Shown one piece after another: positions 33,549 to 52,775 of a stretch of DNA of 64,000 bases. Location: the NCBI RefSeq assembly GCF_012295525.1, contig NZ_CP051167.1, positions 5,557,299 through 5,621,298 on the forward strand. The letters are read 5' to 3'. The DNA is from Oxynema aestuarii AP17 (GTDB taxonomy: Bacteria; Cyanobacteriota; Cyanobacteriia; Cyanobacteriales; Laspinemataceae). Each line of letters starts with the position of its first letter. The stretch's first letter is position 1. The translations under genes and the position numbers were made by a program. The notes beneath the pieces were generated by a model. The model worked only from the letters and a program-made list of their open reading frames with translations, made no database searches and had not been told where the DNA came from.

Positions 33549-35541
33549 CTATATGACCCTTGAGGGTTGTAATTAAGGTGCCGTCAGGTCGCCACAATTT
33601 CACGGTTTTGTCCGAACTACCTGATGCAATGATTGCCCCATCTGGACTGAATGCTACTGCATAAACTACATCCTTATGACCTTCGAGGGTTGTAATTAAG
33701 GTGCCGTCAGGTCGCCACAATTTCACGGTTTTGTCCGAACTACCTGATGCAATGATTGCCCCATCTGGACTGAATGCTACTGCATAAACTACATCCTTAT
33801 GACCTTCGAGGGTTGTAATTAAGGTGCCGTCAGGTCGCCACAATTTCACTTTCTTGTCCCAACTGCCAGAAGCCAAAATTTCCCCATTCGGGCTGAATGC
33901 TACTGCCCTAACTTGATCTGTGTGACCTTCGAGGGTGTTAATTAAGGTGCCATTGGTCTGCCACAACTTCACTGTTTTATCCCGACTGCCTGATGCAATG
34001 ATTTTTCCATCTGGGCTGAATGCTGTTGCCCAAACCCAATGGGTATGACCTTCAAGACGGTTGAACTCCTCAATGTCATAAACTACTTGTTGCAATGCCA
34101 TGATGGGATGCATTTGCGTTGCGACAGTATGACCTTGGGCTTCTAAGTCTTGCAATTTTTGGGCAGTTTTTAAAGCTTCGACTAAGGCTTCAATTTTCTG
34201 GTTGGAATTAAAAAATTCTCGGCTTTTGAGACTCATGGCTAGGATTTCCGCATTGATTTCCCGGCGTTTGGCGTCTCTCGCGAGAAAAATTGCTGTCGCA
34301 GTCGCGGCAGAGAGAGCGAAAATAAAGGTTAAAGCTCCTGCCAAACTGCGTTGCAACAGTTTCACTCGCGCCCGTTCCGCCTGTTGTTTCCCGGCTTCGG
34401 CTTCGGCGAGGCGTCGTTCGAGGTCGTAGTGATACCGTTGCCGGATGGGTTCGACGAGGTAATCGTGGACGAGTTGGTAGCAGTCTGCGGCGGCGTCGAT
34501 CCAGTGTACGACTAAGCCGGAACCGACGAGGACGGTTAAAATCGCGTCTTGCAAGTGAGGGGCTTGAGGTCTGGTCGCCGCGTCTAACTCTAAGGCGGCT
34601 TGGAGGTCGGCATAAGTGCGGCTGGGACGGGTGCCTTTGTCGTCGGTTAAGGCGGCGAGGACTTTCCAGGCGGCTTCGATGTTGGGCGGGCCGCAGTCAG
34701 CTACTGCGGTTTCCAGCCATCGTTGTACGAGGGTGGTTTTGGGTTCGTCGCCGAGGTGGCGGTAGCGGTCGAGGTCGGTGATGTTCTCGGCTTGCAGTTG
34801 GGCGCCGACGATTTGCAGTTCGATGGGGCGGACGGCATCGACTTCGCTGGCGAGGTCGGCGACGACGGCATCGATTAACTCGGGTTGTAAGGACAAATGC
34901 GCTCGTTGGCTCAATTCGAGGATGACTTTACGGGCGCTGTCGGCGTCGAAGTTGCCGAGATAGTAACGATATTTGGGGTTTAACAGGTCGCCCCGGATGT
35001 CGGCGACTTGGGTAAAGCGCTCGAATTCTAGGAGTTCGTGTAAGTAATCTTGCCTTAAGGAAAGGATGATTTTGACGAGGGGAATGGTTTTGGCGTCGAG
35101 GCAGCGTTCGAGAAATTCGTAGAACTGGCGGCGTTGTTTCGGTTGGGGACAAGCTAAGAAAAATTCCTCAAATTGGTCGAAAATTAGCACGGTTAGCCAG
35201 TGGTTCGCCCCGTTGCGCCGTAATTGTCCTTCGATCGCCTCCAAACTGTCCCAATGGGCGTCCGGTTGCCCCATGATTTCCGCCAATGCCGCCCCTAATT
35301 CTTCTGTCCAGGTTTGGCGATCTCGTTCCCGGTCGGACTGAGGCTGGAATAGCGCACCCATTCCGTCTCGCAGTTCCTTGACCTTATGCCATAAATACGG
35401 GTCAGCCTGATCGGGACGTAAGCAAGCTACCCCATTCGGGATGGCTTTAGATGGGGCGCATCCACTGTTACCCCCACACACCGGACAGGGGTTTTGTTTA
35501 TTGAAACTCCGAAGACTTACCGGGGAGGTCATAGCCCGCAC
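33418..35541 (-). CDS. STAND/NACHT-like NTPase remnant (Walker B and winged-helix region, no P-loop) fused to 5 WD40 repeats; N-terminal portion of the same disrupted gene
   Basis: LTVLIFDQFEEF (Walker-B-like) and LVKIILSLRQDYLHELLEF (NACHT-like) motifs, but no GxxxxGK(S/T). An N-terminal Cys cluster (CPVCGGNSGC). Then WD40 units (HTHWVWATAFSPDGKIIASGSRDKTVKLW...). Confidence 0.7.
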   Translation of the reverse strand: MRAMTSPVSLRSFNKQNPCPVCGGNSGCAPSKAIPNGVACLRPDQADPYLWHKVKELRDGMGALFQPQSDRERDRQTWTEELGAALAEIMGQPDAHWDSLEAIEGQLRRNGANHWLTVLIFDQFEEFFLACPQPKQRRQFYEFLERCLDAKTIPLVKIILSLRQDYLHELLEFERFTQVADIRGDLLNPKYRYYLGNFDADSARKVILELSQRAHLSLQPELIDAVVADLASEVDAVRPIELQIVGAQLQAENITDLDRYRHLGDEPKTTLVQRWLETAVADCGPPNIEAAWKVLAALTDDKGTRPSRTYADLQAALELDAATRPQAPHLQDAILTVLVGSGLVVHWIDAAADCYQLVHDYLVEPIRQRYHYDLERRLAEAEAGKQQAERARVKLLQRSLAGALTFIFALSAATATAIFLARDAKRREINAEILAMSLKSREFFNSNQKIEALVEALKTAQKLQDLEAQGHTVATQMHPIMALQQVVYDIEEFNRLEGHTHWVWATAFSPDGKIIASGSRDKTVKLWQTNGTLINTLEGHTDQVRAVAFSPNGEILASGSWDKKVKLWRPDGTLITTLEGHKDVVYAVAFSPDGAIIASGSSDKTVKLWRPDGTLITTLEGHKDVVYAVAFSPDGAIIASGSSDKTVKLWRPDGTLITTLKGHIDGVDSRIQPKWRIISIGKLGWHHKFVAARRHFNQHYQSSYIGD
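33565..33850. repeat. perfect 126-bp tandem duplication (x2.3) encoding one 42-aa WD40 blade
   Basis: gttgtaattaaggtgccgtcaggtcgccacaatttcacggttttgtccgaactacctgatgcaatgattgccccatctggactgaatgctactgcataaactacatccttatgaccttcgagg occurs twice identically, with a third partial copy. Confidence 0.8.
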
Positions 35542-35813
35542 CCTCCGAAGTCGAGTTCAAGTTGCTGGGTTTTCGGTGCTGTTTTGGTTTGGGCGCAACC
35601 CTTTAGATCTTCAAATTCAAGCCGCCCCACCTTCCGCCACCAGCGATCGCACCGCAAGCAGTGAAGCGAAGCCGGATAATTGCCCTGGGGGTGGAGTTCC
35701 AGGCGAGTCTCGCGGCATCCGCAAGATGCACACCCGTGAATATGGGGAGGTAATTTTTTTAATCCCCGGTATCCCGGTCGGGATTCCAAAGAAGGTGATA
35801 TTATGTTTTTCAT
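35529..35813 (-). CDS. small zinc-ribbon-like ORF, possibly an out-of-frame N-terminal piece of the NTPase-WD40 gene
   Basis: HGCASCGC...HCLRCDRWW (CxxC...CxxC). Ends 13 nt inside the next ORF in a different frame. Confidence 0.3.
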   Translation of the reverse strand: MKNIISPSLESRPGYRGLKKLPPHIHGCASCGCRETRLELHPQGNYPASLHCLRCDRWWRKVGRLEFEDLKGCAQTKTAPKTQQLELDFGGCGL

Positions 35814-36699: not shown

Positions 36700-36927
36700 T
36701 TAGTCGTTAGCAGTTTTGATAAGGTCCCCCGGTTCGCACTGCAACAGTTCGCAGAGTCGGGTCAGTTTTTCGTGATCTAGTCCTGGCGGGACAATATCCG
36801 AATTTTTATATCTACTTGCCGTGGTGCGGCTAACCTCCAAGATTTCCGCGAGTTCCCCTACGCTTACCCTCTTAAGCGCCATCAACGCTCGCAGGTTCCA
36901 GTAAATCTCCATAACGGTTGCCATCAT
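36700..36927 (-). CDS. XRE-family (Cro/CI-type) helix-turn-helix transcriptional regulator
   Basis: LKRVSVGELAEILEVSRTTASRYKNSDIVP...LTRLCELLQCEPGDLI. HTH_XRE pattern, including the C-terminal Lxx LxCxxxDL segment. Confidence 0.7.
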   Translation of the reverse strand: MMATVMEIYWNLRALMALKRVSVGELAEILEVSRTTASRYKNSDIVPPGLDHEKLTRLCELLQCEPGDLIKTAND

Positions 36928-37353
36928 ATATCATTCCTCTCTGCTATTGTTCCACGGGGCGGGTTATTTGATGTGTTCAGCGAGTCAGCCCGCTCCTTTC
37001 ATTGTAACCCCTTTGGGTCCTGCTATAATCCACTATATAGGACAAATAACCTTTATAAATTGACAAATATCCCATGCTACGCTACATTAAAATATTGGAA
37101 CCGACAAGACCCCCAGAGACTCCCGGAGTAACCCGGTAAACCAAATCTTGTCCCTGCGATCGACTCGGAATCCTGCAAAAAAAACGAGACCCCATAGCCC
37201 GAAAGCTACAGGGTCCCACCTTACGGGAGATTTCTCCCCCATGAACCGAACATTGACAACCGAATAATCATTTTCATGACCGTATCGGTCTAGTCCTAGG
37301 CGCGCCAACGCTTTGGACCGTATTTCAGTTCAAGTAGTTTTTCAACTAACACT

Positions 37354-37761
37354 ATGACTACTCTATCAATTTCAAGCCCCAAGTGCATGGGATTTTACTC
37401 CCAGGGACTCCAAGATAAGCTCTATCCCTTTGTTGAGAACGGCCAGAGGCTAACACTTGACGATGCCATCCGCCTGATCCACCTATCCAGCGAAGGTGCT
37501 TGGTGGGCGATGCAAAAAGGAATGGACCAGGCGATCGGCCAAATCATGAGTGACCTCGAAGCCGACTCTATGGATTGCGTTCCCTTTGACGGCTTTGATT
37601 CCGACGCTGATGAGTTCCGGGCCCTCAAACTCGAACTCACCGAATGGTTAGCCCTAGCCCGGTGGAGTTCGGAACTGGCTGAACTGCGGCTCAATGATTA
37701 CACCCGAGCCAAAGTCAGCGAGATGGCTGCACAGTCGCCTCCAATCTGGGAGGTACTCTGA
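37354..37761 (+). CDS. hypothetical protein (first of three translationally coupled small ORFs)
   Basis: 135 aa. Its stop overlaps the next start (TGATG). No known motifs. Confidence 0.4.
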   Translation: MTTLSISSPKCMGFYSQGLQDKLYPFVENGQRLTLDDAIRLIHLSSEGAWWAMQKGMDQAIGQIMSDLEADSMDCVPFDGFDSDADEFRALKLELTEWLALARWSSELAELRLNDYTRAKVSEMAAQSPPIWEVL

Positions 37762-38054
37762 TGCAACTACCCAACAAGCTGGCCCCCTTTATTCAGCTAG
37801 ATAACCTCTGCTACGAAGACAAGCTCGACCTCCTAATCGTTGCCACCCAAGCTCTAAAGCAGTGCCACTCTAATAGCCATTACGAAATCGACCTGCTTAA
37901 CGCCCTCGAAAATTCAGACTGTACGCAGGACGCCTTTGAGGGCATCACCGAAAGTCACGAATTTCTCGAAGTGACCCTCACCGAGGTGGAATGGATCCAG
38001 TTCTCCCAGGCTGTTTTAACAGCACTCAAGTTGGTGTTTGAGGTCGCGAAATGA
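37761..38054 (+). CDS. hypothetical protein
   Basis: 97 aa. Start overlaps the previous stop; its stop overlaps the next start (ATGA). Confidence 0.4.
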   Translation: MQLPNKLAPFIQLDNLCYEDKLDLLIVATQALKQCHSNSHYEIDLLNALENSDCTQDAFEGITESHEFLEVTLTEVEWIQFSQAVLTALKLVFEVAK

Positions 38055-38233
38055 ACAACGTTGAGGAGCGAACCATTCATTGGGAGTCGGTCCTGATGGC
38101 TACCCCACTCCCCGGCGAATTAGTGACCTATGTCGCCACCATCCTCGTTCAAGATGAAAACTGGGGTTTTGATGCCCGGACCCGTCAGCAGCAGGCTATC
38201 ATGGCCCGCGCTGCTCAGTCGGTGAGCCTTTAG
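38051..38233 (+). CDS. hypothetical small protein
   Basis: 60 aa. Coupled to the upstream ORF. Confidence 0.35.
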   Translation: MNNVEERTIHWESVLMATPLPGELVTYVATILVQDENWGFDARTRQQQAIMARAAQSVSL

Positions 38234-38579
38234 GAGGTACGCCGATGAGCATTTTCCTTGACATTGGCCTGACCCTCTCCCTCGGTTACCTCTGGTTTCT
38301 GGCATCAGTTGCCCGTGCTCCGGACTGCCGAACCGATAGGTGCGATCGCCTGGATCCGAGTGAAAAAAGACCCCTAATTTATCGATCATAACTTGAGGGA
38401 CATCTTTCACTCCCTAAGTATCTCATCAGCCCTCACAAGACCTGCCTAGGTACTTAGGCCAAAAACTACCTCAAATAACCTCAGATAGCGGGATAGAGAT
38501 AATTCTGTCCCGCTATTCTATTGGTTCCTTCTTAGACCTATCAAGACCTATACAGACCCATAAGGAGTTATACAGTCCT

Positions 38580-39590
38580 ATGCAACCTTACGCGCTTGAT
38601 TTAGGCAACGGATACACGAAATTCTCACGCGGCTCAACCCCTCAGATGATGCCCTCCTACATCTGTGAAGCCCTAGATCCATCAGAGTTGTGTGACGACA
38701 TTGGCTTCGGTGCAATTATCAAATACACCGTCGGAGAGCGCACTGACCTAGCCGGACGAATTTGGGCAGTAGGGGAAGCGGCTAAAACCTCATTCCCAGG
38801 CGCTTTCAGTCGAGTCGTTGATAGCGAGAATTCAACCGGGAAAGTTGATTTTGCACTTCATTTTGCACTCGCTGGACTCCCCCCAGTGAGTCACGGCCAA
38901 TACTTCCAAATTCCGATGATGTATGCCAGTCTGCCTGACCCGGCACTACTGGGAAGCGCCTTCAAACGAGCCATCATCGGCACTCACCGATACATTCATA
39001 ACGGAGTGGAGGCGAGCGCCACAATCGACGATGTGACCGTACTCCATGAAGGTCAGGGAGCTTTCGTTTATGCCTTATCCCAGGGGGTTTTTCCCAGTGG
39101 AACAGCTAACGCGATTATCGACTGTGGGAATGGCACGACAATCGCTCAAGCCTTCAGTCCCAACGGGCATTTAATCCCTAAAAGTCGCACAGTTTCTCAG
39201 GTTGGGGTGTTTCATTTGCTCAAGTCAATCGCCTCGGATATCCGGTTCAAAAAAACCCTCGGGAAAGAAGGGAATATTCACCTGATTCAGCAGGCAATCG
39301 AGGATGGCTCACTCAGCTACGGCTCCCGGAATATTGACATCAGCAACATCTACCGTGAACACCGCAACCGCTGGGCATCACAAGCCCTCAAGAAAGCCCT
39401 CGAAAAGTTTAGCACGATGAAGGATGAAATCGACACCATTTTATTGATTGGCGGTGGCGCAAACATCGTCAAAATCTTAGCCGAAAAGAAAGACTCGATT
39501 GAGTTATGCCCGGAGCCTCAGTTAGCCAATGTCTTAGGTTTAGCAAAGTTGGCAGACAAGCGAATCCGTAACCTTCGGAGTGTGGCGTAA
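38580..39590 (+). CDS. actin-like ATPase of the ParM/StbA plasmid-segregation family
   Basis: Phosphate-1 motif LDLGNGYTK at the N-terminus, phosphate-2 IDCGNGTTIAQ, adenosine motif LLIGGGANIV. 336 aa. Confidence 0.75.
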   Translation: MQPYALDLGNGYTKFSRGSTPQMMPSYICEALDPSELCDDIGFGAIIKYTVGERTDLAGRIWAVGEAAKTSFPGAFSRVVDSENSTGKVDFALHFALAGLPPVSHGQYFQIPMMYASLPDPALLGSAFKRAIIGTHRYIHNGVEASATIDDVTVLHEGQGAFVYALSQGVFPSGTANAIIDCGNGTTIAQAFSPNGHLIPKSRTVSQVGVFHLLKSIASDIRFKKTLGKEGNIHLIQQAIEDGSLSYGSRNIDISNIYREHRNRWASQALKKALEKFSTMKDEIDTILLIGGGANIVKILAEKKDSIELCPEPQLANVLGLAKLADKRIRNLRSVA

Positions 39591-39805
39591 TGGGCAAAAA
39601 ATTAACCCTCCGGACTGAGCTTATCCCCTTGGTTGAATCCTTCGCCAGTGCTAAAGGGGACGACTCCCTTGGAGCGGCGATGAATCGGCTGATTTATCTG
39701 GGATTGAAAGCTGAAGGATTTATCCCTCATGCCACCCATACAAAAGGTGGCAATACTTCCCCCAACAATGACGACTTAGAAATACTCGGAGTCATTGACT
39801 TATGA
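39590..39805 (+). CDS. small putative ribbon-helix-helix DNA-binding protein (ParR-like adaptor candidate)
   Basis: 71 aa. KKLTLRTELIPLVESFASAKGDDSLGAAMNRLIYLGL fits a beta-strand, helix, turn, helix pattern. Overlaps the parM-like stop (TAATG). Position matches the parMR order. Confidence 0.35.
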   Translation: MGKKLTLRTELIPLVESFASAKGDDSLGAAMNRLIYLGLKAEGFIPHATHTKGGNTSPNNDDLEILGVIDL

Positions 39806-40089
39806 ACTACAAAATTACCACCCTTATTACCTGCATAGTCGGTTCAATGCTCACCATGATCCTCGTCCTCGGTGCGCTTGAACCCCAGGTCGATTCAGCC
39901 CGGATGATGACCATTGCCATCTTATGCGGCATAGGGTCAGCTATTGCAAACATAGTGTTTCAACGGCGGCGCTGTCCCCCAGCTTCCGACTCCCTCCAGA
40001 GCCTTCTGCGCGGAGGGCGACTTTCACCGGCGCAGCAATTCACCATCCTGGATGCGATCGCCATCTTGGACGAGCGAGAAAAGGCGTAA
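39802..40089 (+). CDS. small integral membrane protein
   Basis: Two hydrophobic helices (ITTLITCIVGSMLTMILVLGAL; MTIAILCGIGSAIANIVF). Overlapping start and stop. Confidence 0.4.
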   Translation: MNYKITTLITCIVGSMLTMILVLGALEPQVDSARMMTIAILCGIGSAIANIVFQRRRCPPASDSLQSLLRGGRLSPAQQFTILDAIAILDEREKA

Positions 40090-40197
40090 CAACCGGGAAA
40101 CCAACCACTGTAACCATTGAGATTCCGTGGGTTGGGTTTCAGATGTAACCAACAGATTTAACCAACCCCACCCCCTGAAAAATAGGAGATTAAGCCC

Positions 40198-41295
40198 ATG
40201 ATGACGCCATTCGGTGGGAGTTATCTGGAGATAGAGGAAGACTTGCCAGACCTCCAAGACTCCCCCGATGAAACATCTAATTTGCCAGATTTGCTCAATC
40301 CTCCTCCCCTGGAGGCAGACCCCGCACCCACCGTAAAACCCTCAGTCAATCATGCCCGGTTATGGCTGATTATCGGAACGATAGGGGTGGGGTTAGCCGT
40401 TTCAGCCATCGCCCAAAATCAACCCCAATTTAGCCAAATTTCTCTCCCCCAACTCAACCCGCAGACAGGCCAACAAACCCACCAAAAACCTATCTGCCGC
40501 GAGGGGGAACAATCGATGGCGGGTTGTATCCCCTTGCCAGCCCTTGACCCGGCTGAGATGAGGCGGAATGAGTTGCTGGCAAAAACCCTGATAGAAACCT
40601 CCATGCAGCAGACGGCAATCGACCGGGCAAGGCGGGATAACCTGTTGGCTCTATTCGCACCCAACCATAAAGAGGGAGATTACACTCCCCTGGATATTAA
40701 GTTAGTGCGAGAGATGGCTCGACAATCCCAAAACTTGAGGGAATTGGGCCAATTTGAATATTCCGGTGAAGCCTCAATTATTGATATCCCTCGGGTCTAC
40801 AATTCCGACGCCCGTGCGGTTGTTCTAGCAGCCCTGACCCGGATTGGTGAGCAGAGTTTAGTCCAGTCATTCTTAGCCCAACAACTCCAGACTCTCACCA
40901 ACGAACTGAACGAGATTTTAGCCCCGACGATGGGGGAAGTAACCGACAGCAACCGCGCCACATTTGAGCGCCTATCCAGCGAGATTGATGCGGTAAACGA
41001 CGCAATCCGGGCCAGCGCCGGAGGAAATACCCCGGAACCCATCAACCTCGCCTACCTGGCTTCGTTGATGGAGCAACTCACCCTGGAATCAGCCAACCAG
41101 TTGAGCCGTGAAGACTATATGCGCCTGCGGATGGAGGCGCGGCAACAGGCCATCACCGAGGAGATGGAACGCCAAAAACAACTCCAGGAGATTGAGCGCA
41201 TCCGCCAACAAAGCGGGATTGCCCTCCCCAGCAGATCGCGTAGCGTCTCGGAACGAGAATCGCCCACAGGAGGCCCACCTGATGAGCCGAACTAA
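40198..41295 (+). CDS. membrane-anchored protein with acidic N-terminus and long coiled-coil/Gln-rich ectodomain
   Basis: One transmembrane helix (LWLIIGTIGVGLAVSAIA). Predicted helical C-terminal 250 aa. Its stop overlaps the next gene's start by 14 nt. Confidence 0.5.
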   Translation: MMTPFGGSYLEIEEDLPDLQDSPDETSNLPDLLNPPPLEADPAPTVKPSVNHARLWLIIGTIGVGLAVSAIAQNQPQFSQISLPQLNPQTGQQTHQKPICREGEQSMAGCIPLPALDPAEMRRNELLAKTLIETSMQQTAIDRARRDNLLALFAPNHKEGDYTPLDIKLVREMARQSQNLRELGQFEYSGEASIIDIPRVYNSDARAVVLAALTRIGEQSLVQSFLAQQLQTLTNELNEILAPTMGEVTDSNRATFERLSSEIDAVNDAIRASAGGNTPEPINLAYLASLMEQLTLESANQLSREDYMRLRMEARQQAITEEMERQKQLQEIERIRQQSGIALPSRSRSVSERESPTGGPPDEPN

Positions 41296-42727
41296 ACCTG
41301 ACCCGCTGACAACCCGCCAGCTAGGTTTACTCCTAGCGGCCACTTTATTTAGTGGGTCCATCGCTGCCTGGATTGCCTCCCTCACTCCCCAAACCACTTC
41401 GGCAGTGCGCCAAACTCAAGGGGCCATTGATGTACTCACCGAACGGACCCCGAACGACAACTGGGGATTTTTTCTGGGGACCTCCATCGCCTGCCTCGCG
41501 GGAGGAAGTTTGATTCTCAGCCGCAAGGAATTTTTTGACCCCTCCACCCTCCGGGATGACGCCATCAGCACCATCCTTGCCTTGACTTCCCACTCGAATT
41601 ACCTACTCGCGGGAGGTCTCCAAGCTACTGCCAAAATTGCCCTGACCTCACCCCCAGCGAAAAAAGGGAAAGAGGTGGTCTTGCGTGTCATCCCTCCGCA
41701 GTTGAAAAGCGCGGCTGAGAAGTTGAGTGGCGATCGCAAATGGTTCGTGGAGTGGGCTGGATTCCGGAAGGGGTTAGGCGGTCAATCCTGGCAGTGCAAC
41801 TTCGTTGTGGGCTTGCCTGGGAGCGGCAAAACCACCGTGGTCAACGAGATTATCGTCGGGTTCATCCGCTTTAGTGAAGGCACTGGGCAGCTTCGGATAT
41901 TCGACATCAACTACGGCAAACCCGATGACTCGGGGCGAGTAAATACCTGGATGGGTTTACCCCTGAATCAAATAGTAGAGGCCCAATTTGACCGCATCCA
42001 TGCGGGGATTAATGCGGTCTGGGATGAGTTGGAAAAGCGCCGTCAGCAAGCAATTAAAGTCGCGAGTGATGGGGGCAAGCAAACCCTCAACTTCACCCCC
42101 CTGCTCTGTGTTATCGACGAGTTGCCCGCACTCATGAACACCGCCAAGCAGCATGAGGTGGATGAGGAGATTAAGGAGAAGATAGCCGACATCCTGACAA
42201 TGGGGCGCGGTTACCGGGTCAAGCTCCTCCTCATCTCCCAGATGCTCGCCGTTGGCTCGGTCGCCCTGACTAAGGCTCAACAGCAACAAGTTAACAAGTT
42301 AATCCTGGGGACATCCGCCCTTGACGCCGACATCATCAACCGCATCCCCGGGACTGCCCAAGATTTGAGAGGGGAAATCGAGCCTTTACTAAAACAGAAA
42401 AAGCGGGCTTGTGTGGTGCAGTTTGGCGCATCACTCCCCGAGGTTAGAGTCATCCCAGAAATCGACATCAAAGCTCACCGGGTAAGGGTTTGCGCTACTG
42501 ACCCGGACGAGGTTTGGTGGCGTGAAACCTGGACGGGAGAGACCCGAAAGCGGGTAGAAGAACTCGCCCGAAGTTACGCCAATGGCGAGATTAAATCGCC
42601 TCTAAAGGGGGAAGTTATCTCGCTGTTCAATATCACCAACATGAGTAGAGACGAGCGTTACAAGCGCTTTGTTAGCCCCGTCTGGAACGAGTTAGTTAAT
42701 CAACATAAAACGGAGCAAAAACCATGA
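41282..42727 (+). CDS. membrane-anchored P-loop NTPase, FtsK/SpoIIIE- or TraD/VirD4-like (putative DNA translocase/coupling protein)
   Basis: Two N-terminal transmembrane helices. Walker A VVGLPGSGKTTVVNE, Walker B LLCVIDELPALM. Start at the ATG at 41282 (MSRTKPD); the track ORF begins at 41108 inside the upstream gene. Confidence 0.75.
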   Translation: MSRTKPDPLTTRQLGLLLAATLFSGSIAAWIASLTPQTTSAVRQTQGAIDVLTERTPNDNWGFFLGTSIACLAGGSLILSRKEFFDPSTLRDDAISTILALTSHSNYLLAGGLQATAKIALTSPPAKKGKEVVLRVIPPQLKSAAEKLSGDRKWFVEWAGFRKGLGGQSWQCNFVVGLPGSGKTTVVNEIIVGFIRFSEGTGQLRIFDINYGKPDDSGRVNTWMGLPLNQIVEAQFDRIHAGINAVWDELEKRRQQAIKVASDGGKQTLNFTPLLCVIDELPALMNTAKQHEVDEEIKEKIADILTMGRGYRVKLLLISQMLAVGSVALTKAQQQQVNKLILGTSALDADIINRIPGTAQDLRGEIEPLLKQKKRACVVQFGASLPEVRVIPEIDIKAHRVRVCATDPDEVWWRETWTGETRKRVEELARSYANGEIKSPLKGEVISLFNITNMSRDERYKRFVSPVWNELVNQHKTEQKP

Positions 42728-43347
42728 TTAAAAATGTAGGCACGGCCATCATTGGCGCGGGTGCAATTTGGGTTCTTTGGAGTCCGCTCATTGCCCCAAT
42801 CGGGCGGGGGATGTTTACCCAGCGAATCAATCCCTCTCGCAATGCTTCCCCTGATAGTGTGGTGCAGTTTTTTAGTGCGGGGACTGCGAACATGATTGGT
42901 AAGGGTTTTGAGAACTATGATACCGAAAACCTCGGACGACGGTTTGACGAACCCAACCCTCAGATTCGCTTACCGGGTGATGATTTATGGCTCACAGACC
43001 CACGCCGTTATATCCCCTTTTTGCGCCCCAACCCCCAGCAACCGCAACAACAGCAGCGGAATTTATCGCCCCATAACCAGGTAGTCACCCCGAACGAAAA
43101 CTGCCCACCGGACCAGCAATGGATTGATGCCACGGAACCCGACAAAAACCCAGATCAACCGAACCGACTCCAGGCGATCGCCACCGAACCCAACAAAACC
43201 CCAACTCAACCGCACCTCCGTTGTCCCCTACGTTATCTGGACCGACTCCAGGCGATCGCCAACTTCCTCAACAAAACCCCCTATCAACCGGACCTGAGTT
43301 GTCCCCGGCGTCAGCCTCACCCACTCAATCCAAACCGGACATCTTGA
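42724..43347 (+). CDS. membrane protein with Pro/Gln-rich repetitive C-terminus
   Basis: N-terminal transmembrane helix (VGTAIIGAGAIWVLWSPLIAPI). Internal repeat PDQPNRLQAIATEPNKTPTQP / LDRLQAIANFLNKTPYQP. Confidence 0.4.
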   Translation: MIKNVGTAIIGAGAIWVLWSPLIAPIGRGMFTQRINPSRNASPDSVVQFFSAGTANMIGKGFENYDTENLGRRFDEPNPQIRLPGDDLWLTDPRRYIPFLRPNPQQPQQQQRNLSPHNQVVTPNENCPPDQQWIDATEPDKNPDQPNRLQAIATEPNKTPTQPHLRCPLRYLDRLQAIANFLNKTPYQPDLSCPRRQPHPLNPNRTS

Positions 43348-44129
43348 ATGAGGAGGAATATCATCAATGGTCCCGCCAGGTTGCGCCCGTCCTCAATACT
43401 TACCTCCAGCACCGAGGGATTCCAGTTATCGAAGGCAACCGCTTCCGGACTTATAAGCGCGGTCAATACCTCGTTTTGGAATATCGGGATGACTCCAGAA
43501 CACTGATGATTGCCCATAACAGTGACTCGGGTTCCTGGGAGATTCCGAACTGTTTCGCGGTTAAGCGGACCACTGCGGAGCACATTTTGTCACAGTTACT
43601 CCCGGCCATGCAGCGCACTATGAGGCTCAGTCATCCGAGTATCTCAGGCAAGTCTCCAACAGATCCGCCCACACCTCAACCCTCTCAGTCTCAAATCGCA
43701 ACACCGTCACCAACGCCCTCATCAACCCCAACCTCAACGCCAACACCATCACCCACCCCGTCCCCACCCTCTGTCCTGAATGAGCAGGAATATCAACAGT
43801 GGGTGAATACCGTGGCTCCATTCCTCAATACTTACCTGAAGCACCGGGGTGTGCGGATGTTCTCCGGCGATCGCTTCCGGACTTACAAGCGGGGTCAGTA
43901 CCTCGTTTTGGAATATCGGGATGGTTCGGGCACTCTGATTATTGGCCGACCCACTGGCAACGGGTCTTGGGAGACTCCCAAACAGTTTCCGGTCAAGGTC
44001 AAACGCGAGGACGCCAACTATATTGTGGAACGGTCTATCCCGCTGATGCAGGAAGATATCAGGCAACGTCAACAACGTTATAGGCCATCGAAACGCTCTC
44101 GTTCTAACCAACTGGATATCTCGGATTGA
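43221..44129 (+). CDS. protein with two tandem copies of a ~90-aa domain separated by a Pro/Ser/Thr linker
   Basis: EEEYHQWSRQVAPVLNTYLQHRGIPVIEGNRFRTYKRGQYLVLEYRDDSRTL... is repeated as EQEYQQWVNTVAPFLNTYLKHRGVRMFSGDRFRTYKRGQYLVLEYRDGSGTL.... The 5' end overlaps the upstream ORF by 127 nt, so the true start is uncertain. Confidence 0.5.
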   Translation: MSPTLSGPTPGDRQLPQQNPLSTGPELSPASASPTQSKPDILNEEEYHQWSRQVAPVLNTYLQHRGIPVIEGNRFRTYKRGQYLVLEYRDDSRTLMIAHNSDSGSWEIPNCFAVKRTTAEHILSQLLPAMQRTMRLSHPSISGKSPTDPPTPQPSQSQIATPSPTPSSTPTSTPTPSPTPSPPSVLNEQEYQQWVNTVAPFLNTYLKHRGVRMFSGDRFRTYKRGQYLVLEYRDGSGTLIIGRPTGNGSWETPKQFPVKVKREDANYIVERSIPLMQEDIRQRQQRYRPSKRSRSNQLDISD

Positions 44130-44224
44130 GGCGATCGCGGCATGGTGTTTTCGTACCCTTGAAGTCTCCTTGAGGCGATCGCACCCGGGTCATCCAAACC
44201 CAGCCACCGGCTTACTGAGTACCT

Positions 44225-44700
44225 GGTCTAGTTTTAGTCTACACTGCTGTCTACTATCATGCCCGGTAATTGTAAGCGCCCACCTCAAACCCCTAGGATA
44301 ATCCGGGTCCATCCCCTGTCTACAATTTTGTCTATTATAGGGAGCAAACCCGAGTGTAGTCCCCGTCTATAACCTTGTCTACTTCAGGGCTGTTCCCCGC
44401 CAAATTTTCCGCCTATAACCTTGCTAAGGGAGTCAATCCAAGTCTAGCCTCTGTCTATCCCCTGCCTAGACTACTATGGGTCACCGGGGTCAACACGGGT
44501 CTAACTGCTGTCTACAATCCCGTCTATCTCAGGGGGCCAACAAGGGTCTAGTTTTCGTCTACAATCCTGTCTATCCTAGCGGTCGAGATTGGTCTACCTC
44601 TTGTCTATCCTAGTGGGTGATATCGGTCTAGTTCTTGTCTACAACCCTGTCTAGTTTAGGGAGCCAACAACAGTCTAGTTTTCGTCTATATCTTTGTCTA
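44225..44700. repeat. iteron array A: ~10 units of 38-47 bp, each with three GTCTA(C/T/G) hexamers at ~11-12-bp spacing
   Basis: Example unit: gGTCTAgttttcGTCTACaatccTGTCTAtcctag. The units are unambiguous direct repeats. Immediately 3' of the RHH gene. Confidence 0.75.
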
Positions 44701-44708
44701 CAAATGCC

Positions 44709-45569
44709 CTAACCCTTTGGCTCAACGGGATAGTAGCGCTCTTTTTGATAGCTCCAGGCGATCTCTTCCGGGTCCTGTTGGCTGGTCCATTTGGCAAAGG
44801 CGTTCGTGCCTTTTTTCTTGCGGTTGGTGGTAATGCTCGACGGGCTGACTGACAACCGTTTTGCCAACTCCCGGCCACTGAGTCCTTGAGTGCGGAAATC
44901 TCCCGCCGCGTCTACTCCCTGCTTAGATTCCTGGGAACGGCTGAGATCGCCCCCGGTTGCTTCCTCCAAGCCCAATTCTCCAGAAGTCGCCTGAACCTCA
45001 CCCTCAACCGCATCATCACCCGAGTCTCCCGCCGCCTCTACAAAGCGCTCAGATTCTGGGGAAGCGTGGCGATCTCGAACGGTTACTTCCTCCAACTCCA
45101 ACTCTGCCGAAGTTGCCTGAATCTCTCCTTCAACTGGCGCATCACCCGAGTCTACCAGCGAGTCTACCTGCCCGTCTACATCAACCCGGGCCACCTCATC
45201 TACTGGTGCATCACCCGAGTCTCCCGGCGCGTCTAGCCCGTCTACCGGCGCGTCTACATTCTCATCTACATCAGAAGCAGACAGCCGTATTTCCAATGCT
45301 TTCAGGCGTTCCTCAAGGGTGCGAGTTACCCCCAGAATCGCCTGCTCAACCGCAGCGTCTACAAGGGATTGAACAGTCGCCGTCGTCTGAGGGGATGGCG
45401 GTTCTATTCCCAGGTACGCCTCAATCGCTTGGACAATAAATTCGCTGCGACTCGTATCCTGCCGTGCCTGATCAATCTGGGCCAACAGTTGGGGAGTGGT
45501 CCGGACATTCACCTGGGCGCGTCCCGATTTGGATGACTTCGCCTCGGCTTTTTTTGAGGGTCGGCTCAT
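44709..45569 (-). CDS. ribbon-helix-helix DNA-binding protein with acidic repeat region and basic C-terminal tail (candidate iteron-binding Rep/Par-type protein)
   Basis: N-terminal RAQVNVRTTPQLLAQIDQARQDTSRSEFIVQAIEAYL matches the CopG/ParG/omega RHH pattern. Central acidic repeats SGDAPVEGEIQATSAELELEEVT / SGDDAVEGEVQATSGELGLEEAT. C-terminus RKKKGTNAFAKWTSQQDPEEIAW. Confidence 0.6.
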   Translation of the reverse strand: MSRPSKKAEAKSSKSGRAQVNVRTTPQLLAQIDQARQDTSRSEFIVQAIEAYLGIEPPSPQTTATVQSLVDAAVEQAILGVTRTLEERLKALEIRLSASDVDENVDAPVDGLDAPGDSGDAPVDEVARVDVDGQVDSLVDSGDAPVEGEIQATSAELELEEVTVRDRHASPESERFVEAAGDSGDDAVEGEVQATSGELGLEEATGGDLSRSQESKQGVDAAGDFRTQGLSGRELAKRLSVSPSSITTNRKKKGTNAFAKWTSQQDPEEIAWSYQKERYYPVEPKG

Positions 45570-45590
45570 GTTTTTTCCTCTATTTTGAAT

Positions 45591-45835
45591 AGTCTACACT
45601 GAATCTACTATGAGTCTACGCTGAATCTATCATCAGTCTACAGTGAATCTACCCTCAGTCTACAATAAATCTATCATCAGTCTACAGTGAATCTACCCTC
45701 AGTCTACAATAAATCTATCATCAGTCTACAGTGAATCTACCCTCAGTCTACAGTGAATCTACCCTCAGTCTACAATAAATCTATCCTCAGTCTACACTGA
45801 ATCTACCCTCAGTCTACACTGAATCTACACCTAAT
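45591..45835. repeat. iteron array B: 11 contiguous 22-bp direct repeats (cAGTCTACagtGAATCTACcct) in the promoter region of the RHH gene
   Basis: Two alternating unit variants (cagtctacagtgaatctaccct / cagtctacaataaatctatcat). The GTCTAC core is shared with array A. Three inverted GTAGAC hexamers follow at 45925-45960. Confidence 0.8.
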
Positions 45836-46158
45836 CCGACATTGCTCCCCTAGAATTTTTCACTCCACTCTACTCCTCCGGCTGCAACCCCTAGTTTGGC
45901 TGTGGGGGGAAGCGGCACATCCCCTTCAAGTGTAGACAAACAAGTAGACTACTATTCAATCCTGTAGACGTTCGTTTTCTTCTTCCAACTCGGTGAGCCG
46001 TAACCGGAGTTCAGCCAGCGCCATCCCGATTTTCTCCTCCAATTCGTTGATGCGGTTGTTGAGCCGGTTCGACTCCCTTGCATCCAAATCCTCATCGCAA
46101 AGGGGCAAACGGGGTTTGAATAGCAACCATGCAGAAACTTACGCTAAGGCTAAAAGCC

Positions 46159-49100
46159 TTACATACAAGGGGTTTCACCCCATGTTTCTGGGAAATCATT
46201 GAGGTCACGTAAGGGACGCATCCCTCCATCAAGCAACTCCGAAGGCAAATTAAAGTGATAGCGACCCAGCATATTGATATGAGAATAGGCCAGAGGAGAT
46301 AGCCGAGCAATATCTTCTGCCTTGACCAGTGTTCCTTGAAGGCGTAGATGATTCAAGGCGGTATTCATGTAATAGGTATTCCATAAAACCAGCACATTAA
46401 CCACCAAACCTAAAGCTGATAGCTGCTCTTCCTGACCTTCTCGATAGCGTTGGCGTACCTCTCCTCGACGACCATAAAATATCGCTCTAGATAAACTATG
46501 ACGACCTTCTCCCCGATTTAATTGAGTAAGGATGCGACGGCGATAAGCCTCATCATCGACATAGTTCAACAAATACAAAGTCTTGGCAACTCGTCCTAAT
46601 TCCCCAATTGCCTTGGCTAAAGTAGAAGGCTTTTTTCCTAATTGCAAAGCTCGCATAATTTCTTGAGCGCTGACAGTTCCCAACTTCAATGAACCAGCTA
46701 CCCGGAGCAAATCATCCCAGTTCTGCTCAATTAAGTGTGTCTTGACCCACTGTCGTGCTAGTTTATCGAGAACTCCGTAATCAGCATTTGTATCAAGTCG
46801 CCAAAATCGAGCCTCCCCTACGTCTGCTAGACGAGGACTAAACTGATAACCTAACAACCAAAACAACCCAAACACCACATCGCTGTAACCAGAAGTATCT
46901 GTCATCAGTTCTTTAGGTTGTAGGCTAGTTTGTTGCTCTAATAATCCCACCAAAACAACCAGAGAATCCCGCAGCGTTCCTGGCACAACCAGACCATGAA
47001 AGCCCGTAAACTGATCGGAGGTAAAGTTATAGTAAGTAATGCCTCGTCCCTGACCAAAGTATTTACTGTTTGGCCCAGCGTTCAAAGTTCGTACAGGCAC
47101 CACAAAGCGCAAACCATCGGCTGAAGCCACTTCGCCACCTCCCCAATTTTGAGCGAGAGGAATTTGGGCCTGGGTATCAACCAGCCGCGCATTAGCTCGG
47201 ACAAGAGTTTCGGGGCGAATATAGTTTTGCTCTACCCAAGTGAGCCGAGAACGTGTTAAAGCCGGGAGATCTGGACGTACCAAGGGAGTCAATCCAATAT
47301 TGCAAGCTGAAGCAATTAACACAGCACAAATACTGGTGGATAAGTCTCTCACCCTGGCGAAACTTTCATTGATGTGGATGAACTCATCCATAAACCCAGT
47401 TTTGACTTGGATTTCCAGCAAGACTTCTGGTAAATCGACATGGGGAAGCAACGATTCAACTTGCTGTTTGAGGAGAAGGTAACTATCGGGTTCTTCCAAC
47501 TTATCCAGATTGCTGATAGTTAGAGTTTCACGCCCTTTGGTAACTTCAATTCTGACGGCAGCATTATTAGGTAAATTGTTGGCAGTCCGAGAGTAAGCTT
47601 CATCCAATTGTTGTCTAAGGACATTCAGTTCCTCGACAGGAGTTGGGTTAAGATTTAAAGCTCGACAGACGTGAGACCGAGCTGATTCCCAAGCACGACC
47701 CTGTAACAATTTAGCTTGAGGATTACTCCAACGCTCAGAAGGACTTACGAATAAGTCTCGACGACGAAGCCCTTCAACTAATTGCTCTAAGACACAAAAA
47801 GTATAGGCGCGACGGTCAATTCTACCATCAGAAAGAACGACCCACCGTCCCCAACTTTTGCTCACGACTTGAAGCGGTGCAGCCTTCATATCTGGCTTGG
47901 TTTGTCCCTCAATCGATTGGAGAAAACGCCAAGCGGCTAAGATAGGCTGACCCGCTTTGTTAGCCAAAAATTCAATCGTCAAGAGTAGGGTAGGAAGAAA
48001 ACACCGAGCCTGTCGCCAACGTCCCAACAATTCCTGATAATAATTATGGTCGGGAGGTCTTGCCAACTCTTCAACTTGAGTTACTGCCTTGGTCAATTGG
48101 TCTTTGGTTAGGAGCCTCCATACTTTTTCTCGCACCTTCTCATCATCGCAGTTAGGGTCAAGTAAAACTCGACCCACTTGGGAAAGTTGTAGAGCCGCTG
48201 CATCTAAATCTTTGAGCGTCCGGAGGCGTTCTTTCTTTCCCTCACGCGCTGAGCAGGAGAGTAAATCTTTGACGAGTAACTCTAACACATCAAGTGCATC
48301 ATCCGTAGCGATCGCTTCCATGACATAAGCGAAAGCAACCAGAGTGGCAAGGCGTCTTGAAGAGGGCATTCGTGCGATTGCCTGCGCTCTTACCGTTAAG
48401 GCAGTTCTGGATAAAGCTTTCAATTGAGTGGGTGGAATTTTAGCGACGGGAAGCTGCCTGATTCCTAGAGAACGAATGGTTACTAAGCGATTCAAAGCAT
48501 TTACTAGAGCTGAAGAACTGGTCCGGGTTGGCGAGCGCCGTAACTGCTCCAGAAGAGTGGGTCTCATTTTTTCATTGACGAAAAGTAAAGCTTCTAGTTG
48601 ATTGGTTTGCTCGGCATTAGGTAGTTTTGACAACAAAAGCCACAGACGCTTGGCGACCCGCTCACGCACACTGGAAATCAGCCGAACTAATACACTCACT
48701 CCCGGCAGAAGAATTTTGTTTTCAACCAATCGAGCTGTGGTTAGATCGAATAAAATACTTGGACTTTCGTCACTGACCCAAGCTCGTTCGTAAAGCCAAC
48801 GAACTAATCGCCAGTGAAAGGGTTGCTCGCTGAAATCTCGATAGGCGTAGTGCAGTTTAATGGCTTGTGCGTGTTCCCAATGAGTTGTGGGTCGTTCCAA
48901 ATAGCGGGGTAAACAGTTCTTATTGGTGATATCCAACTGGGCTGCCAGATCGGCAATGACAACTTGAGGGACATCAATAGGGTTGGTCAGGAACGTTCCT
49001 AGAAAGCGAACTGTACAAAGCTGTATCGCGAAGCCCAAGCGGTTATGGTCTCCACGGCGTTTGTTCACTAACTGTCGGGCTGTATCGTCTAAATGGAAAT

Positions 49101-49185
49101 AGCGAGCGAGCTGAACTGGCGTTGGGTCTCCCACATACCGTCCATAACTTTGTTGCTGTTCCTCCGTCAGAAATCGTATCGACAT
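46159..49185 (-). CDS. tnpA: Tn3-family DDE transposase
   Basis: 1008 aa. N-terminal DUF4158-type region (MSIRFLTEEQQQSYGRYVGDPTPVQLARYFHLDD). The C-terminal DDE core is typical of Tn3 TnpA. Confidence 0.95.
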   Translation of the reverse strand: MSIRFLTEEQQQSYGRYVGDPTPVQLARYFHLDDTARQLVNKRRGDHNRLGFAIQLCTVRFLGTFLTNPIDVPQVVIADLAAQLDITNKNCLPRYLERPTTHWEHAQAIKLHYAYRDFSEQPFHWRLVRWLYERAWVSDESPSILFDLTTARLVENKILLPGVSVLVRLISSVRERVAKRLWLLLSKLPNAEQTNQLEALLFVNEKMRPTLLEQLRRSPTRTSSSALVNALNRLVTIRSLGIRQLPVAKIPPTQLKALSRTALTVRAQAIARMPSSRRLATLVAFAYVMEAIATDDALDVLELLVKDLLSCSAREGKKERLRTLKDLDAAALQLSQVGRVLLDPNCDDEKVREKVWRLLTKDQLTKAVTQVEELARPPDHNYYQELLGRWRQARCFLPTLLLTIEFLANKAGQPILAAWRFLQSIEGQTKPDMKAAPLQVVSKSWGRWVVLSDGRIDRRAYTFCVLEQLVEGLRRRDLFVSPSERWSNPQAKLLQGRAWESARSHVCRALNLNPTPVEELNVLRQQLDEAYSRTANNLPNNAAVRIEVTKGRETLTISNLDKLEEPDSYLLLKQQVESLLPHVDLPEVLLEIQVKTGFMDEFIHINESFARVRDLSTSICAVLIASACNIGLTPLVRPDLPALTRSRLTWVEQNYIRPETLVRANARLVDTQAQIPLAQNWGGGEVASADGLRFVVPVRTLNAGPNSKYFGQGRGITYYNFTSDQFTGFHGLVVPGTLRDSLVVLVGLLEQQTSLQPKELMTDTSGYSDVVFGLFWLLGYQFSPRLADVGEARFWRLDTNADYGVLDKLARQWVKTHLIEQNWDDLLRVAGSLKLGTVSAQEIMRALQLGKKPSTLAKAIGELGRVAKTLYLLNYVDDEAYRRRILTQLNRGEGRHSLSRAIFYGRRGEVRQRYREGQEEQLSALGLVVNVLVLWNTYYMNTALNHLRLQGTLVKAEDIARLSPLAYSHINMLGRYHFNLPSELLDGGMRPLRDLNDFPETWGETPCM

Positions 49186-49287
49186 TCTGTGACTGGCTGT
49201 TTGTACCCGTAAGACTATAATCTATTTGGTACACTGAAAGGGAACGATAGCATTAGGGTTTTCACTCTTGTTTCACAGAGGGATTAA
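49186..49287. promoter_or_regulatory. putative res (resolution) site / divergent tnpA-tnpR promoter region
   Basis: 102-bp interval between divergent tnpA and tnpR. Contains the inverted motif tgtaccc...ggtaca (tgtacccgtaagactataatctatttggtaca). The position is canonical for Tn3-family res sites. Confidence 0.45.
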
Positions 49288-49935: not shown

Positions 49936-50264
49936 AAGTATTACCCAGTAAGGATTTCAGCCTTAGCGTAAGTTTCTGTACGATTGCTACTCAAACGCCC
50001 AAACCCTGAGCAAGGCACTGGCGAATAAAGATGGAAATCTGCTCCGTGGCAGTGGTCCCCTCATCCTGGCAAAGGGCCACAAAAGATTGCCACTCCTCCG
50101 GATCCATTCGGAGTGAAATCGGTTTTCGGGTCATAACTTTTCGTTTCCCACGTCAATCCAGTATTGCCAATACAAGCGTATTACAAAAAAAGGGAATTGC
50201 CGATACAGGGCCTTGGGGGACTGGGGGCCTTTGAGGTGGGTTCTACTAGATTTAAGGTAAACTG

Positions 50265-50291
50265 GTGTAAATAAGGGACCCTTATTTACAC
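50265..50291. promoter_or_regulatory. perfect 13-bp inverted repeat with 1-nt spacer (gtgtaaataaggg a cccttatttacac) 22 bp upstream of the truncated serine recombinase gene
   Basis: Perfect palindrome, followed by the RBS-like aggaaaggtagg and the ATG at 50313. Candidate recombinase binding or crossover site, or an operator. Confidence 0.45.
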
Positions 50292-50312
50292 ACAAGAGGA
50301 AAGGTAGGGGCC

Positions 50313-51032: not shown

Positions 51033-51298
51033 AACATGAGCAATTTAGAAAAGGACATCATAGAAGCCTTAAGGGGTAAGGACGGCATCTTCCCTACTAG
51101 AATACGCGATTACATACGCACTAAGCATTTCTTAAACTTCGGAGATGGGCCAAACGTCGCACTCTTAATGTCAAAAAAGCTCAGGGTCTATATTGGCGAG
51201 CAATCAGCAATAGAAACTGGGTATTTGCGACCAAAGGGGAGCAGCCAAAAAAGCTAGTTTTACACACAGAGTTTGCGACCAGTAGTAACAAACATCTG

Positions 51299-52762: not shown

Positions 52763-52775
52763 CTGCTCATTGTTT

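Follow-up and report, generated by a model that had tools for sequence, protein, structure and literature searches.

A decayed plasmid backbone in the chromosome of Oxynema aestuarii, with a ParMRC-like cassette and the front of a putative DNA-exporting envelope module

Based on comparisons of sequence, gene order and predicted structure, we propose an interpretation of a gene cluster of the filamentous cyanobacterium Oxynema aestuarii AP17 that encodes a ParM-like actin-fold ATPase and a membrane-anchored FtsK-like ATPase. The cluster lies in a 64,000-nt stretch of contig NZ_CP051167.1 (positions 5,557,299 to 5,621,298), here called the window, whose coordinates, open reading frames (ORFs) and translations are the base of this work. 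In our best overall explanation, to which we assign a probability of roughly 0.55, the region is a decayed, integrated plasmid with a ParMRC-like cassette and the front of a DNA-exporting envelope module. The contig is 6,357,750 bp long and a glgB-like match is located near window position 2,700, so the region is chromosomal. The initial annotation of the cluster had pictured either an integrated plasmid or an element like the integrative and conjugative elements of actinomycetes (AICEs). The first idea is borne out by plasmid-collinear DNA in the chromosome, revealed by blastn against pOSCIL6304.02 and pOSCIL6304.01 of Oscillatoria acuminata PCC 6304. On these alignments, it is well supported that about 35.3-51.7 kb of the window is a chromosomally integrated, partly deleted plasmid backbone of the pOSCIL6304 type, of Oscillatoria/Laspinema-type filamentous cyanobacteria.

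The plasmid remnant and its borders

Positions 37083-43131 share 91.7% identity with pOSCIL6304.02 and about 74% with pOSCIL6304.01. Two further segments, 43163-46108 and 50001-51698, are collinear with a second part of pOSCIL6304.02, which contains the C-terminus of a relaxase, the gene of a 302-aa protein, a serine recombinase gene and an HNH gene. At about 43131, where blastn homology to the plasmid locus L001 stops, approximately 16 kb of pOSCIL6304.02 are gone, and with them an 83-aa transmembrane (TM) protein, a hydrolase combining M23 and GH108 domains, ParA, an integrase and the relaxase N-terminus. When the plasmid proteins were searched against the window by tblastn, the 83-aa protein, the M23-GH108 hydrolase, ParA, the integrase and the DUF5906/D5_N replication protein found no match, and of the relaxase the C-terminus alone was matched. 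Two ORFs bear the marks of this deletion. ORF 42724-43347, gene D below, encodes 207 aa, 136 of which are matched in all relatives (tblastn). It had been described as a Pro/Gln-rich membrane protein; the single TM helix stands, but the Pro/Gln-rich tail lies beyond the junction at ~43131, in DNA matching the plasmid relaxase gene. ORF 43221-44129 had been counted as a gene of the operon, a role that does not survive comparison: it is 62% identical to residues 486-737 of the 737-aa relaxase of pOSCIL6304.02 (BLASTP), whose Pfam Relaxase domain occupies residues 17-150, and it corresponds to the two C-terminal repeats of this MobA/VirD2-type protein, the nuclease domain missing. Between window and plasmid copies, the synonymous and non-synonymous codon differences number 122 and 21 in the ATPase gene and 33 and 10 in parM. 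These counts indicate divergence of both genes under purifying selection and do not date it.

At the left border, ORF 33418-35541 (minus strand) opens with a Rep-like stretch that has a CPVCGG zinc ribbon and goes on as an nSTAND1 NTPase with WD40 repeats that has lost its N-terminal part; therefore the plasmid DNA ends within a broken host gene. A 94-aa ORF just upstream of this chimera (35529-35813, minus strand) retains the first ~19 residues of the plasmid Rep. No flanking direct repeats or att-like repeats were found at the borders and no tRNA genes in the window. On the right, a perfect 21-bp tandem duplication (CTCTATCTCTCGGCTTTACCC x 2, 51677-51718) is positioned exactly at the end of pOSCIL6304.02 homology; this unit has no further copy in the window and none at the left border. 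The remnant is interrupted by a complete Tn3-family transposon (46111-49999; transposase 46159-49185, resolvase 49288-49935), inserted exactly at L003 10299/10300 of the plasmid backbone. Its inverted repeats are 52 bp long, and 5 bp of target sequence, CAAAC, are duplicated. A serine recombinase gene with Resolvase and Recombinase domains (50313-51032) and an HNH endonuclease gene (51299-51604) share 93% DNA identity with pOSCIL6304.02 and belong to the same remnant. A phage-plasmid was considered and rejected, as the annotations of both Oscillatoria plasmids are devoid of structural phage genes. Since the window copy is without hydrolase, replication gene and working relaxase, it is most likely a non-autonomous, transfer-defective remnant that is inert as a mobile element.

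The gene cluster and its probable partition cassette

The ten plus-strand ORFs of the cluster were confirmed at the coordinates of the initial annotation, and most of them are coupled through overlaps of 1-14 nt. ORFs and coordinates are thus real, but the ten-gene operon that they had been taken to form is not. Non-coding gaps at 38392-38579 and 40090-40197 interrupt the cluster, the first with a conserved inverted repeat and tandem repeats, so that more than one transcription unit is probably present; in addition, the ninth gene is chimeric, the tenth is the relaxase remnant and a 48-aa gene had been overlooked. The TM topologies and Walker motifs previously assigned to the cluster proteins match our predictions and translations, hydropathy giving two helices for the 95-aa protein, one for the 365-aa protein, two for the ATPase and one for the 207-aa protein. 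The features are as follows.

36700-36927, minus strand: divergent 75-aa regulator of the Cro/C1 helix-turn-helix type (Pfam HTH_26, E 5.6e-12); pOSCIL6304.01, pOSCIL6304.02 and contig L037 have a gene at the equivalent position
37002-37088, plus strand: two sigma-70-like promoter matches in the divergent intergenic region (TTGTAA-16-TATAAT with TG; TTGACA-17-TACATT), consensus matches only
37354-37761, plus strand: 135-aa acidic protein, conserved in pOSCIL6304.01 and pOSCIL6304.02, with 0 matches in Pfam, NCBIfam and PHROG
37761-38054, plus strand: 97-aa acidic protein, 1-nt overlap with the preceding ORF; homologues annotated in both plasmids
38051-38233, plus strand: 60-aa protein, 4-nt overlap with the preceding ORF; homologues in both plasmids
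38245-38391, plus strand: 48-aa single-TM protein (TM residues 1-19), the overlooked gene; a 48-aa coding sequence is annotated here in both plasmids
38485-38516, no strand: 13-bp inverted repeat ATAGCGGGATAGA / TCTGTCCCGCTAT, candidate operator or hairpin between transcription units; kept in L001, L002 and L011
38534-38581, plus strand: 10-bp tandem repeats abutting the parM ribosome-binding site (Tandem Repeats Finder, TRF), candidate parC-like centromere or operator
38580-39590, plus strand: ParM/ALP-type actin-fold ATPase, 336 aa (Pfam, NCBIfam, PHROG and PDB profile matches)
39590-39805, plus strand: 71-aa ParR-like adaptor candidate (alignments, AlphaFold2 (AF2) model)
39802-40089, plus strand: module gene A, 95-aa protein with TM helices 8-26 and 35-53
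40198-41295, plus strand: module gene B, 365-aa bitopic protein (TM 55-73), 14-nt overlap with the ATPase start
41282-42727, plus strand: core ATPase of the module, 481 aa; two TM helices at the N-terminus precede an FtsK/TcpA-like RecA-type domain, and ~80 conserved residues at the C-terminus form a helical domain
42724-43347, plus strand: module gene D, chimeric, 207 aa; residues 1-136 are those of a native 144-aa 1-TM protein, the rest is a foreign tail made by the deletion
43131-43163, no strand: deletion junction (blastn against the plasmid; L001 18043 and L003 7310)
43221-44129, plus strand: relaxase C-terminal remnant with two ~145-aa repeats (BLASTP against the 737-aa pOSCIL6304.02 relaxase)

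Following four small genes, the cluster comprises two modules that can be told apart by function. In the first, the parM gene, the 71-aa gene and the repeats upstream fit a type II (ParMRC-like) partition cassette, with adaptor and centromere as candidates. The initial annotation had recognised the actin-fold ATPase as ParM-like, and Pfam, PHROG and PDB matches place it in the ParM/ALP type: MreB-like_C (45.7 bits, cut-off 27.8) and ALP_N (33.2 bits, cut-off 26.3) both score above gathering, NCBIfam ParM and PRTRC_D match partially, and a PHROG 'partition protein' matches over the full length (8e-24). In the PDB, the nearest solved relative by sequence is 3js6, 'Uncharacterized ParM protein' (3.9e-5), and ALP12 is matched as well. 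The motifs DLGNGYTK, DCGNGTT and IGGGA are all present in the translation. This part of the cluster is ordinary and widespread, given that ParM relatives occur on 105 plasmids, mostly of Nostoc, Tolypothrix and Calothrix.

The 71-aa protein had been presented as a small ribbon-helix-helix protein in the parR position. The position holds, and so do a ParR layout and an AF2 topology that fits a ribbon-helix-helix, but the Foldseek matches are not significant (best matches all E >= 0.68) and no sequence match to known ParR families was obtained in Pfam, NCBIfam, PHROGs or the PDB. In alignments, its N-terminal domain of 44 aa and its acidic-hydrophobic tail (NDDDLEILGxIDL) are conserved, and the linker between them varies. 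In the AF2 model, the N-terminus is extended and followed by two helices (9-22 and 27-42, pLDDT ~87); the linker is disordered, and another short helix lies at the C-terminus. The top Foldseek matches (NikR, ParD, AtaR), which we take to be mostly ribbon-helix-helix proteins, are among these non-significant ones. Ahead of parM, TRF detects repeats of period 10 in 4.8 copies, with three clear AGACC units at 38534-38563; the pattern AGACCYNNNNAGACC has 2 matches where 0.03 are expected. L002 and L011 also have three AGACC units spaced 10 bp apart, with differing bases between them, and the 13-bp inverted repeat is conserved in L001, L002 and L011 despite differing flanking bases. The ParMRC systems of R1 and pSK41 share with this cassette an actin-fold ATPase gene, a small adaptor gene, here for a candidate DNA-binding protein, that overlaps it start to stop, and short tandem repeats directly upstream. 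ParMRC model systems have eight to ten iterons, whereas three clear 10-bp repeats and a 13-bp inverted repeat are found here, next to an adaptor that matches no ParR family. In the mechanism that we envisage, the 71-aa protein would attach to the repeats ahead of parM and link copies of the plasmid to ParM filaments, whose growth would push the copies apart.

Downstream of the cluster, GTCTA-type iterons form two arrays (44225-44700 and 45547-45876) on either side of a 286-aa gene (44709-45569, minus strand) whose N-terminus looks like a ribbon-helix-helix. One array has 47-bp units and the other a 22-bp unit, AGTCTACACTGAATCTACCCTC, in 10.8 copies. pOSCIL6304.02 displays the same layout (L003 8792-8988, gene 9007-9915) with the 22-bp unit in 3.9 copies; hence the window array is expanded. 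The iterons may be a second centromere, an origin or a translocase recognition site. Outside the remnant, a 628-bp direct duplication (29682-30892) containing two 192-aa ORFs, 90-98% identical, lies upstream within a low-GC stretch at 29-34 kb (~42-44% GC). Just past the right border, at 52364-55532 (minus strand), a 918-aa ORF rich in YD/RHS-like repeats is followed by a 132-aa ORF; judged from their translations, the two look like a toxin-immunity pair.

A conserved envelope module on plasmids and phages

Beyond the partition cassette, the window holds, by homology and gene order, the front part of a conserved module, consisting of A, B, the ATPase and the chimeric D. The complete module runs from a 2-TM protein through a bitopic protein, the ATPase, a 144-aa 1-TM protein (D) and a ~80-aa 1-TM protein (E) to a TM-anchored fusion of Peptidase_M23 and Glyco_hydro_108. 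This order is constant in both Oscillatoria plasmids, several Laspinema and Oscillatoria contigs and the 20.7-kb contig L037, and in intact relatives M23 with GH108 or lysozyme is always found at the module end. The ATPase has a counterpart in the Planktothrix phage PaV-LD, ORF127L (26% identity over the full length, E 1e-36, tblastn against phages). PaV-LD (L015 5640-10525) and PaV-LD-like viral contigs (L022, L032) are collinear with the plasmids: 2-TM ORF129L, bitopic ORF128L, the ATPase, two 1-TM proteins, TM-M23 ORF123L and GH108 ORF122L. The halves of the plasmid hydrolase match ORF123L (2e-9) and ORF122L (2e-14). Two features set the PaV-LD lysis region (ORF122-ORF129) apart, namely that the phage has one gene for M23 and another for GH108 where the plasmids have a fusion, and that no ParM stands beside the phage module. 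The published 'holin' ORF124 and endopeptidase ORF123 of PaV-LD are the fifth and sixth genes of the conserved module, and the PaV-LD-like contigs have no ORF126L.

Three distant lineages (L017, L038, L039; ATPase identity 27-32%) keep the module order, L017 up to the contig end. In L038 and L039 the sixth gene encodes a TM-anchored M23 peptidase, and a phrog_90 endolysin (3e-36) is present in L039 as well. Across plasmid, L-lineage and PaV-LD-like modules, ATPase identity is 26-32%; apart from L017, all of them end in a TM-anchored M23 peptidase, accompanied by a glycosidase or not. Gene A has a homologue in L017 (tblastn 2.5e-9), and proteins of the same topology precede the ATPase at the same position in PaV-LD (ORF129L), L038 and L039. 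Gene B encodes an acidic/Pro N-terminus, the TM helix at 55-73 and a long helical C-terminal part; the end of the bitopic gene overlaps the ATPase start or lies a few nt from it in PaV-LD (ORF128L), L038 and L039, and a ~120-nt gap separates the two in L017. BLASTP between the accessory genes of plasmids and phages was negative. Aligned with hhalign, plasmid and phage families score 0.01 for gene A, 3e-4 for gene B, 1e-3 for another positional pair and 0.16-0.38 for the D protein, compared with 0.04-0.85 for other pairings; the scores are weak, yet best for cognate pairs. In L004 and L012 the module is found without ParM, next to a DUF3854 protein, and it is accompanied by three replication-gene types, including DUF5906/D5_N and Prim-Pol; therefore it is an independent unit. 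A packaging motor, including that of a membrane-containing tailless phage, was rejected, because PaV-LD encodes a terminase, a portal and a major head protein of its own (and also has integrase, replication initiator and toxin-antitoxin genes), and another family member is encoded near a Terminase_6N gene. We found no description of the module in the literature searched.

The ATPase had been annotated as a P-loop protein resembling DNA translocases or coupling proteins, and profile and fold searches concur, supporting its assignment as a 2-TM ATPase of the FtsK/TcpA group. Its 481 residues comprise N-terminal helices at 11-34 and 61-80 (AF2) and one ATPase domain with Walker A GSGKT and Walker B VIDE; G182, K183 and E280 are invariant in 70 family members. 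Single-sequence searches of Pfam and NCBIfam give weak FtsK and EssC matches. With Pfam FtsK_SpoIIIE the protein scores 17.6 bits, below the cut-off of 24, and 4 of the 70 members match that model at E < 1e-3. A profile of the 70 members matches EssC/EccC (1.8e-11), HerA, FtsK (2.1e-7) and TcpA (2.2e-6) in the PDB, and the solved structures closest to the ATPase in fold are those of a coupling protein of conjugation and of a DNA translocase, with ~14-16% identity to TcpA. An unrelated family such as the KAP NTPases, which had been named as the outcome that would overturn this assignment, was not what the profile and fold searches returned, and fold results rule out a KAP or STAND NTPase. The C-terminal ~80 residues (~400-481; DPDxxWW...GEIxSPLK...RY...W), with invariant tryptophans, are together with the P-loop the best conserved part of the family. 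As a profile, this domain has no significant match in the PDB (best 0.04-0.07); an FtsK-gamma-like winged helix finds no support, and a SANT/Myb-like match is weak (E 0.07).

An exhaustive representative search delineates a family of 186 representative clusters, 101 of them at E < 1e-10, for which neither Pfam nor NCBIfam has a model. Word-based homologue searches with the ATPase, the 70-sequence profile included, returned 6-7 close matches. A 6-sequence alignment retrieved Laspinema and Oscillatoria contigs only in a genome scan, a metagenome scan yielded two loci, tblastn against 72,556 plasmids matched the two Oscillatoria plasmids only, and viral scans gave no match, either with the plasmid-type ATPase or with three distant members. 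All named hosts are filamentous cyanobacteria (Oxynema, Oscillatoria, Laspinema, Elainellaceae, Kastovskya, Planktothrix) bar one Actinomycetota metagenome-assembled genome (MAG). The members so labelled (P0011, P0171), on 7.8-8.2 kb contigs, could be a binning error or a real actinomycete link.

What does the module do?

We tentatively suggest, at somewhat less than even odds, that the module transports DNA of the element that carries it across the envelope, through a wall opened by the hydrolases. Three observations lead us there: the closest structures belong to a coupling protein and a DNA translocase, plasmids and a phage carry the module, and the named hosts, apart from the one MAG, are filamentous cyanobacteria. 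The ATPase would form a ring in the cytoplasmic membrane and pump the DNA of the element out of the cell, to a recipient or to a neighbouring trichome cell. The small membrane proteins would form a conduit, and the M23 and glycosidase (GH108 or lysozyme) hydrolases would open the thick peptidoglycan. In E. coli, the PaV-LD M23 protein is active by means of its own TM domain (PMC9096620); export of the hydrolase therefore does not require the ATPase. Homologies, architecture, synteny and truncations are established; DNA as substrate, ring assembly and transport direction are what we infer.

Several considerations weigh against our overall explanation. That DNA is the substrate is an inference. 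By profile, EssC/EccC, ATPases of type VII protein secretion systems, outscore FtsK and TcpA. Neither a VirB4-type ATPase nor a VirB6-like polytopic protein was seen in any element, and the relaxase is restricted to pOSCIL6304.02, being not found on pOSCIL6304.01 and not annotated in the parts of PaV-LD examined. For the accessory proteins A, B, D and E, homology between plasmids and phages is argued from topology, order and the weak hhalign scores. The downstream genes of PaV-LD have been studied as a lysis module, with ORF124 as holin and ORF123 as endopeptidase (PMC9096620). As to the partition cassette, the ParR fold of the 71-aa protein falls short of statistical significance in Foldseek, and only three clear repeats stand ahead of parM.

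How does the module compare with known transfer systems? One of the closest is TcpA with the Tcp locus of Clostridium perfringens pCW3, a Gram-positive type IV secretion system with an FtsK-like coupling protein. Unlike Tcp, the module lacks both a second ATPase of the VirB4 kind and a polytopic protein resembling VirB6, and pOSCIL6304.01 has no relaxase; identity is only ~14-16%, the host has an outer membrane, and the module is also present in tailed phages. A type IV coupling protein at work in such a system would be accompanied, on the same element, by a relaxase and a channel with a VirB4-type ATPase, and no second ATPase is encoded in the module of any element examined. The module is not a standard type IV system, because there is no VirB4-like ATPase and a relaxase accompanies it on pOSCIL6304.02 only. 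MOB-suite types the two Oscillatoria plasmids as mobilizable and non-mobilizable, none as conjugative. The TraB/Spd system of Streptomyces resembles the module in having a single FtsK-like translocase and several small membrane proteins, encoded by plasmids of a multicellular filamentous host, where the TraB-Spd complex spreads plasmid DNA between compartments (PMC4447253). The differences are that the ATPase shows no detectable sequence relation to TraB on plasmids, that its C-terminal domain matches neither FtsK-gamma nor a winged helix of the kind by which TraB reads 8-bp clt repeats, that no clt-like site was identified, and that the module has dedicated M23 and GH108 hydrolases. FtsK/SpoIIIE and EssC/EccC have the ATPase fold, Walker motifs and membrane anchoring in common with the present protein, which differs from FtsK/SpoIIIE by lacking the gamma domain and the linker and having a single ATPase domain, and from EssC/EccC by having one such domain rather than three tandem FtsK-like domains.

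An alternative, in our view unlikely but to be taken seriously, is that the genes form a phage-type cassette for lysis or breaching of the envelope, with holin-like proteins, a spanin-like bitopic protein and endolysins, in which the ATPase is accessory or regulatory and which plasmids acquired from phages. PaV-LD ORF123 (TM and M23) and ORF124, called endopeptidase and holin, damage membranes and inhibit growth, and published work on this region deals with these two ORFs only, as lysis genes (PMC9096620). ORF122 is annotated as an endolysin, the 95-aa protein weakly matches a PHROG holin (0.0016), L039 carries the phrog_90 endolysin, and the bitopic protein, whose TM helix is followed by a long helical domain, is similar in layout to an inner-membrane spanin. 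Against such a cassette, the genes are kept on stably maintained plasmids, with two diverged copies each in O. acuminata PCC 6304 and Laspinema palackyanum D2a, and the ATPase is the sole component detectable by sequence in all lineages and overlaps or abuts both neighbours in most. Furthermore, we know of no described lysis system with an FtsK-like ATPase.

We consider it improbable that the module is a minimal type VII-like protein secretion system, in which an EssC/EccC-like ATPase and small membrane partners would export a cargo such as one of the small acidic proteins encoded upstream or a toxin. The best PDB profile matches, EssC/EccC at 1.8e-11, the weak NCBIfam matches to EssC and EccCa, the two N-terminal TM helices, as in EssC, and the small acidic 97- and 135-aa proteins encoded upstream would agree with it. 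No cluster protein has a WXG100 or FHA match in Pfam or NCBIfam.

An active AICE, which would excise as a circle and move double-stranded DNA by a single TraB-like FtsK translocase that recognises repeats of the element, is very improbable. It would be in keeping with the single, membrane-anchored, FtsK-like ATPase, the chromosomal location, the GTCTA-type repeat arrays 1.5-3 kb downstream, which are possible recognition sites in principle, the filamentous hosts and the cooperation of Streptomyces TraB with small membrane Spd proteins (PMC4447253). The borders and gene content tell otherwise: tyrosine integrase and replication gene are not found in the window, flanking direct or att-like repeats are missing, the left end lies within a truncated host gene, and the module is cut by the 16-kb deletion. 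The closest relatives are free plasmids rather than integrated elements. The transfer mode proposed in the initial annotation, double-stranded DNA moved by a single FtsK-like TraB, is likewise not supported by anything seen here. With tblastn over the 72,556 plasmids, no Streptomyces TraB relative was detected.

A role in anti-phage defence or exclusion, centred on a HerA/FtsK-like ATPase, is scarcely credible: a PADLOC mad8 match (2.5e-9) on the P-loop region, HerA defence ATPases among the structural neighbours and STAND-WD40 and RHS-type genes in the flanks speak for it, but the other nine scanned proteins have no PADLOC match, no nuclease, Sir2 or methyltransferase partner is present and the module is itself carried by a phage. 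The MADS system in particular was rejected, since the ATPase alone matches (mad8) and the full gene set is not there.

What are the implications of a DNA-exporting module? What the window holds is ordinary, a decayed plasmid fragment with a common ParM cassette, and its value is that of a pointer to the ATPase module. One survey of cyanobacterial plasmids used VirB4, VirD4 and a relaxase to identify those predicted to be conjugative (PMC8600333). Should the module move DNA, the phylum, in which plasmid mobility is poorly understood, would have a second and much simpler route of transfer. Such movement could also explain how plasmids and phage genomes reach all cells of a trichome, and the PaV-LD 'lysis' genes, explored for bloom control, would read differently. 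We further speculate, as a doubtful extension of the proposed DNA movement, that the module is a relaxase-independent DNA translocation apparatus that moves plasmids and the temperate-looking PaV-LD through the septal wall along the trichome, a cyanobacterial counterpart of Streptomyces TraB/Spd.

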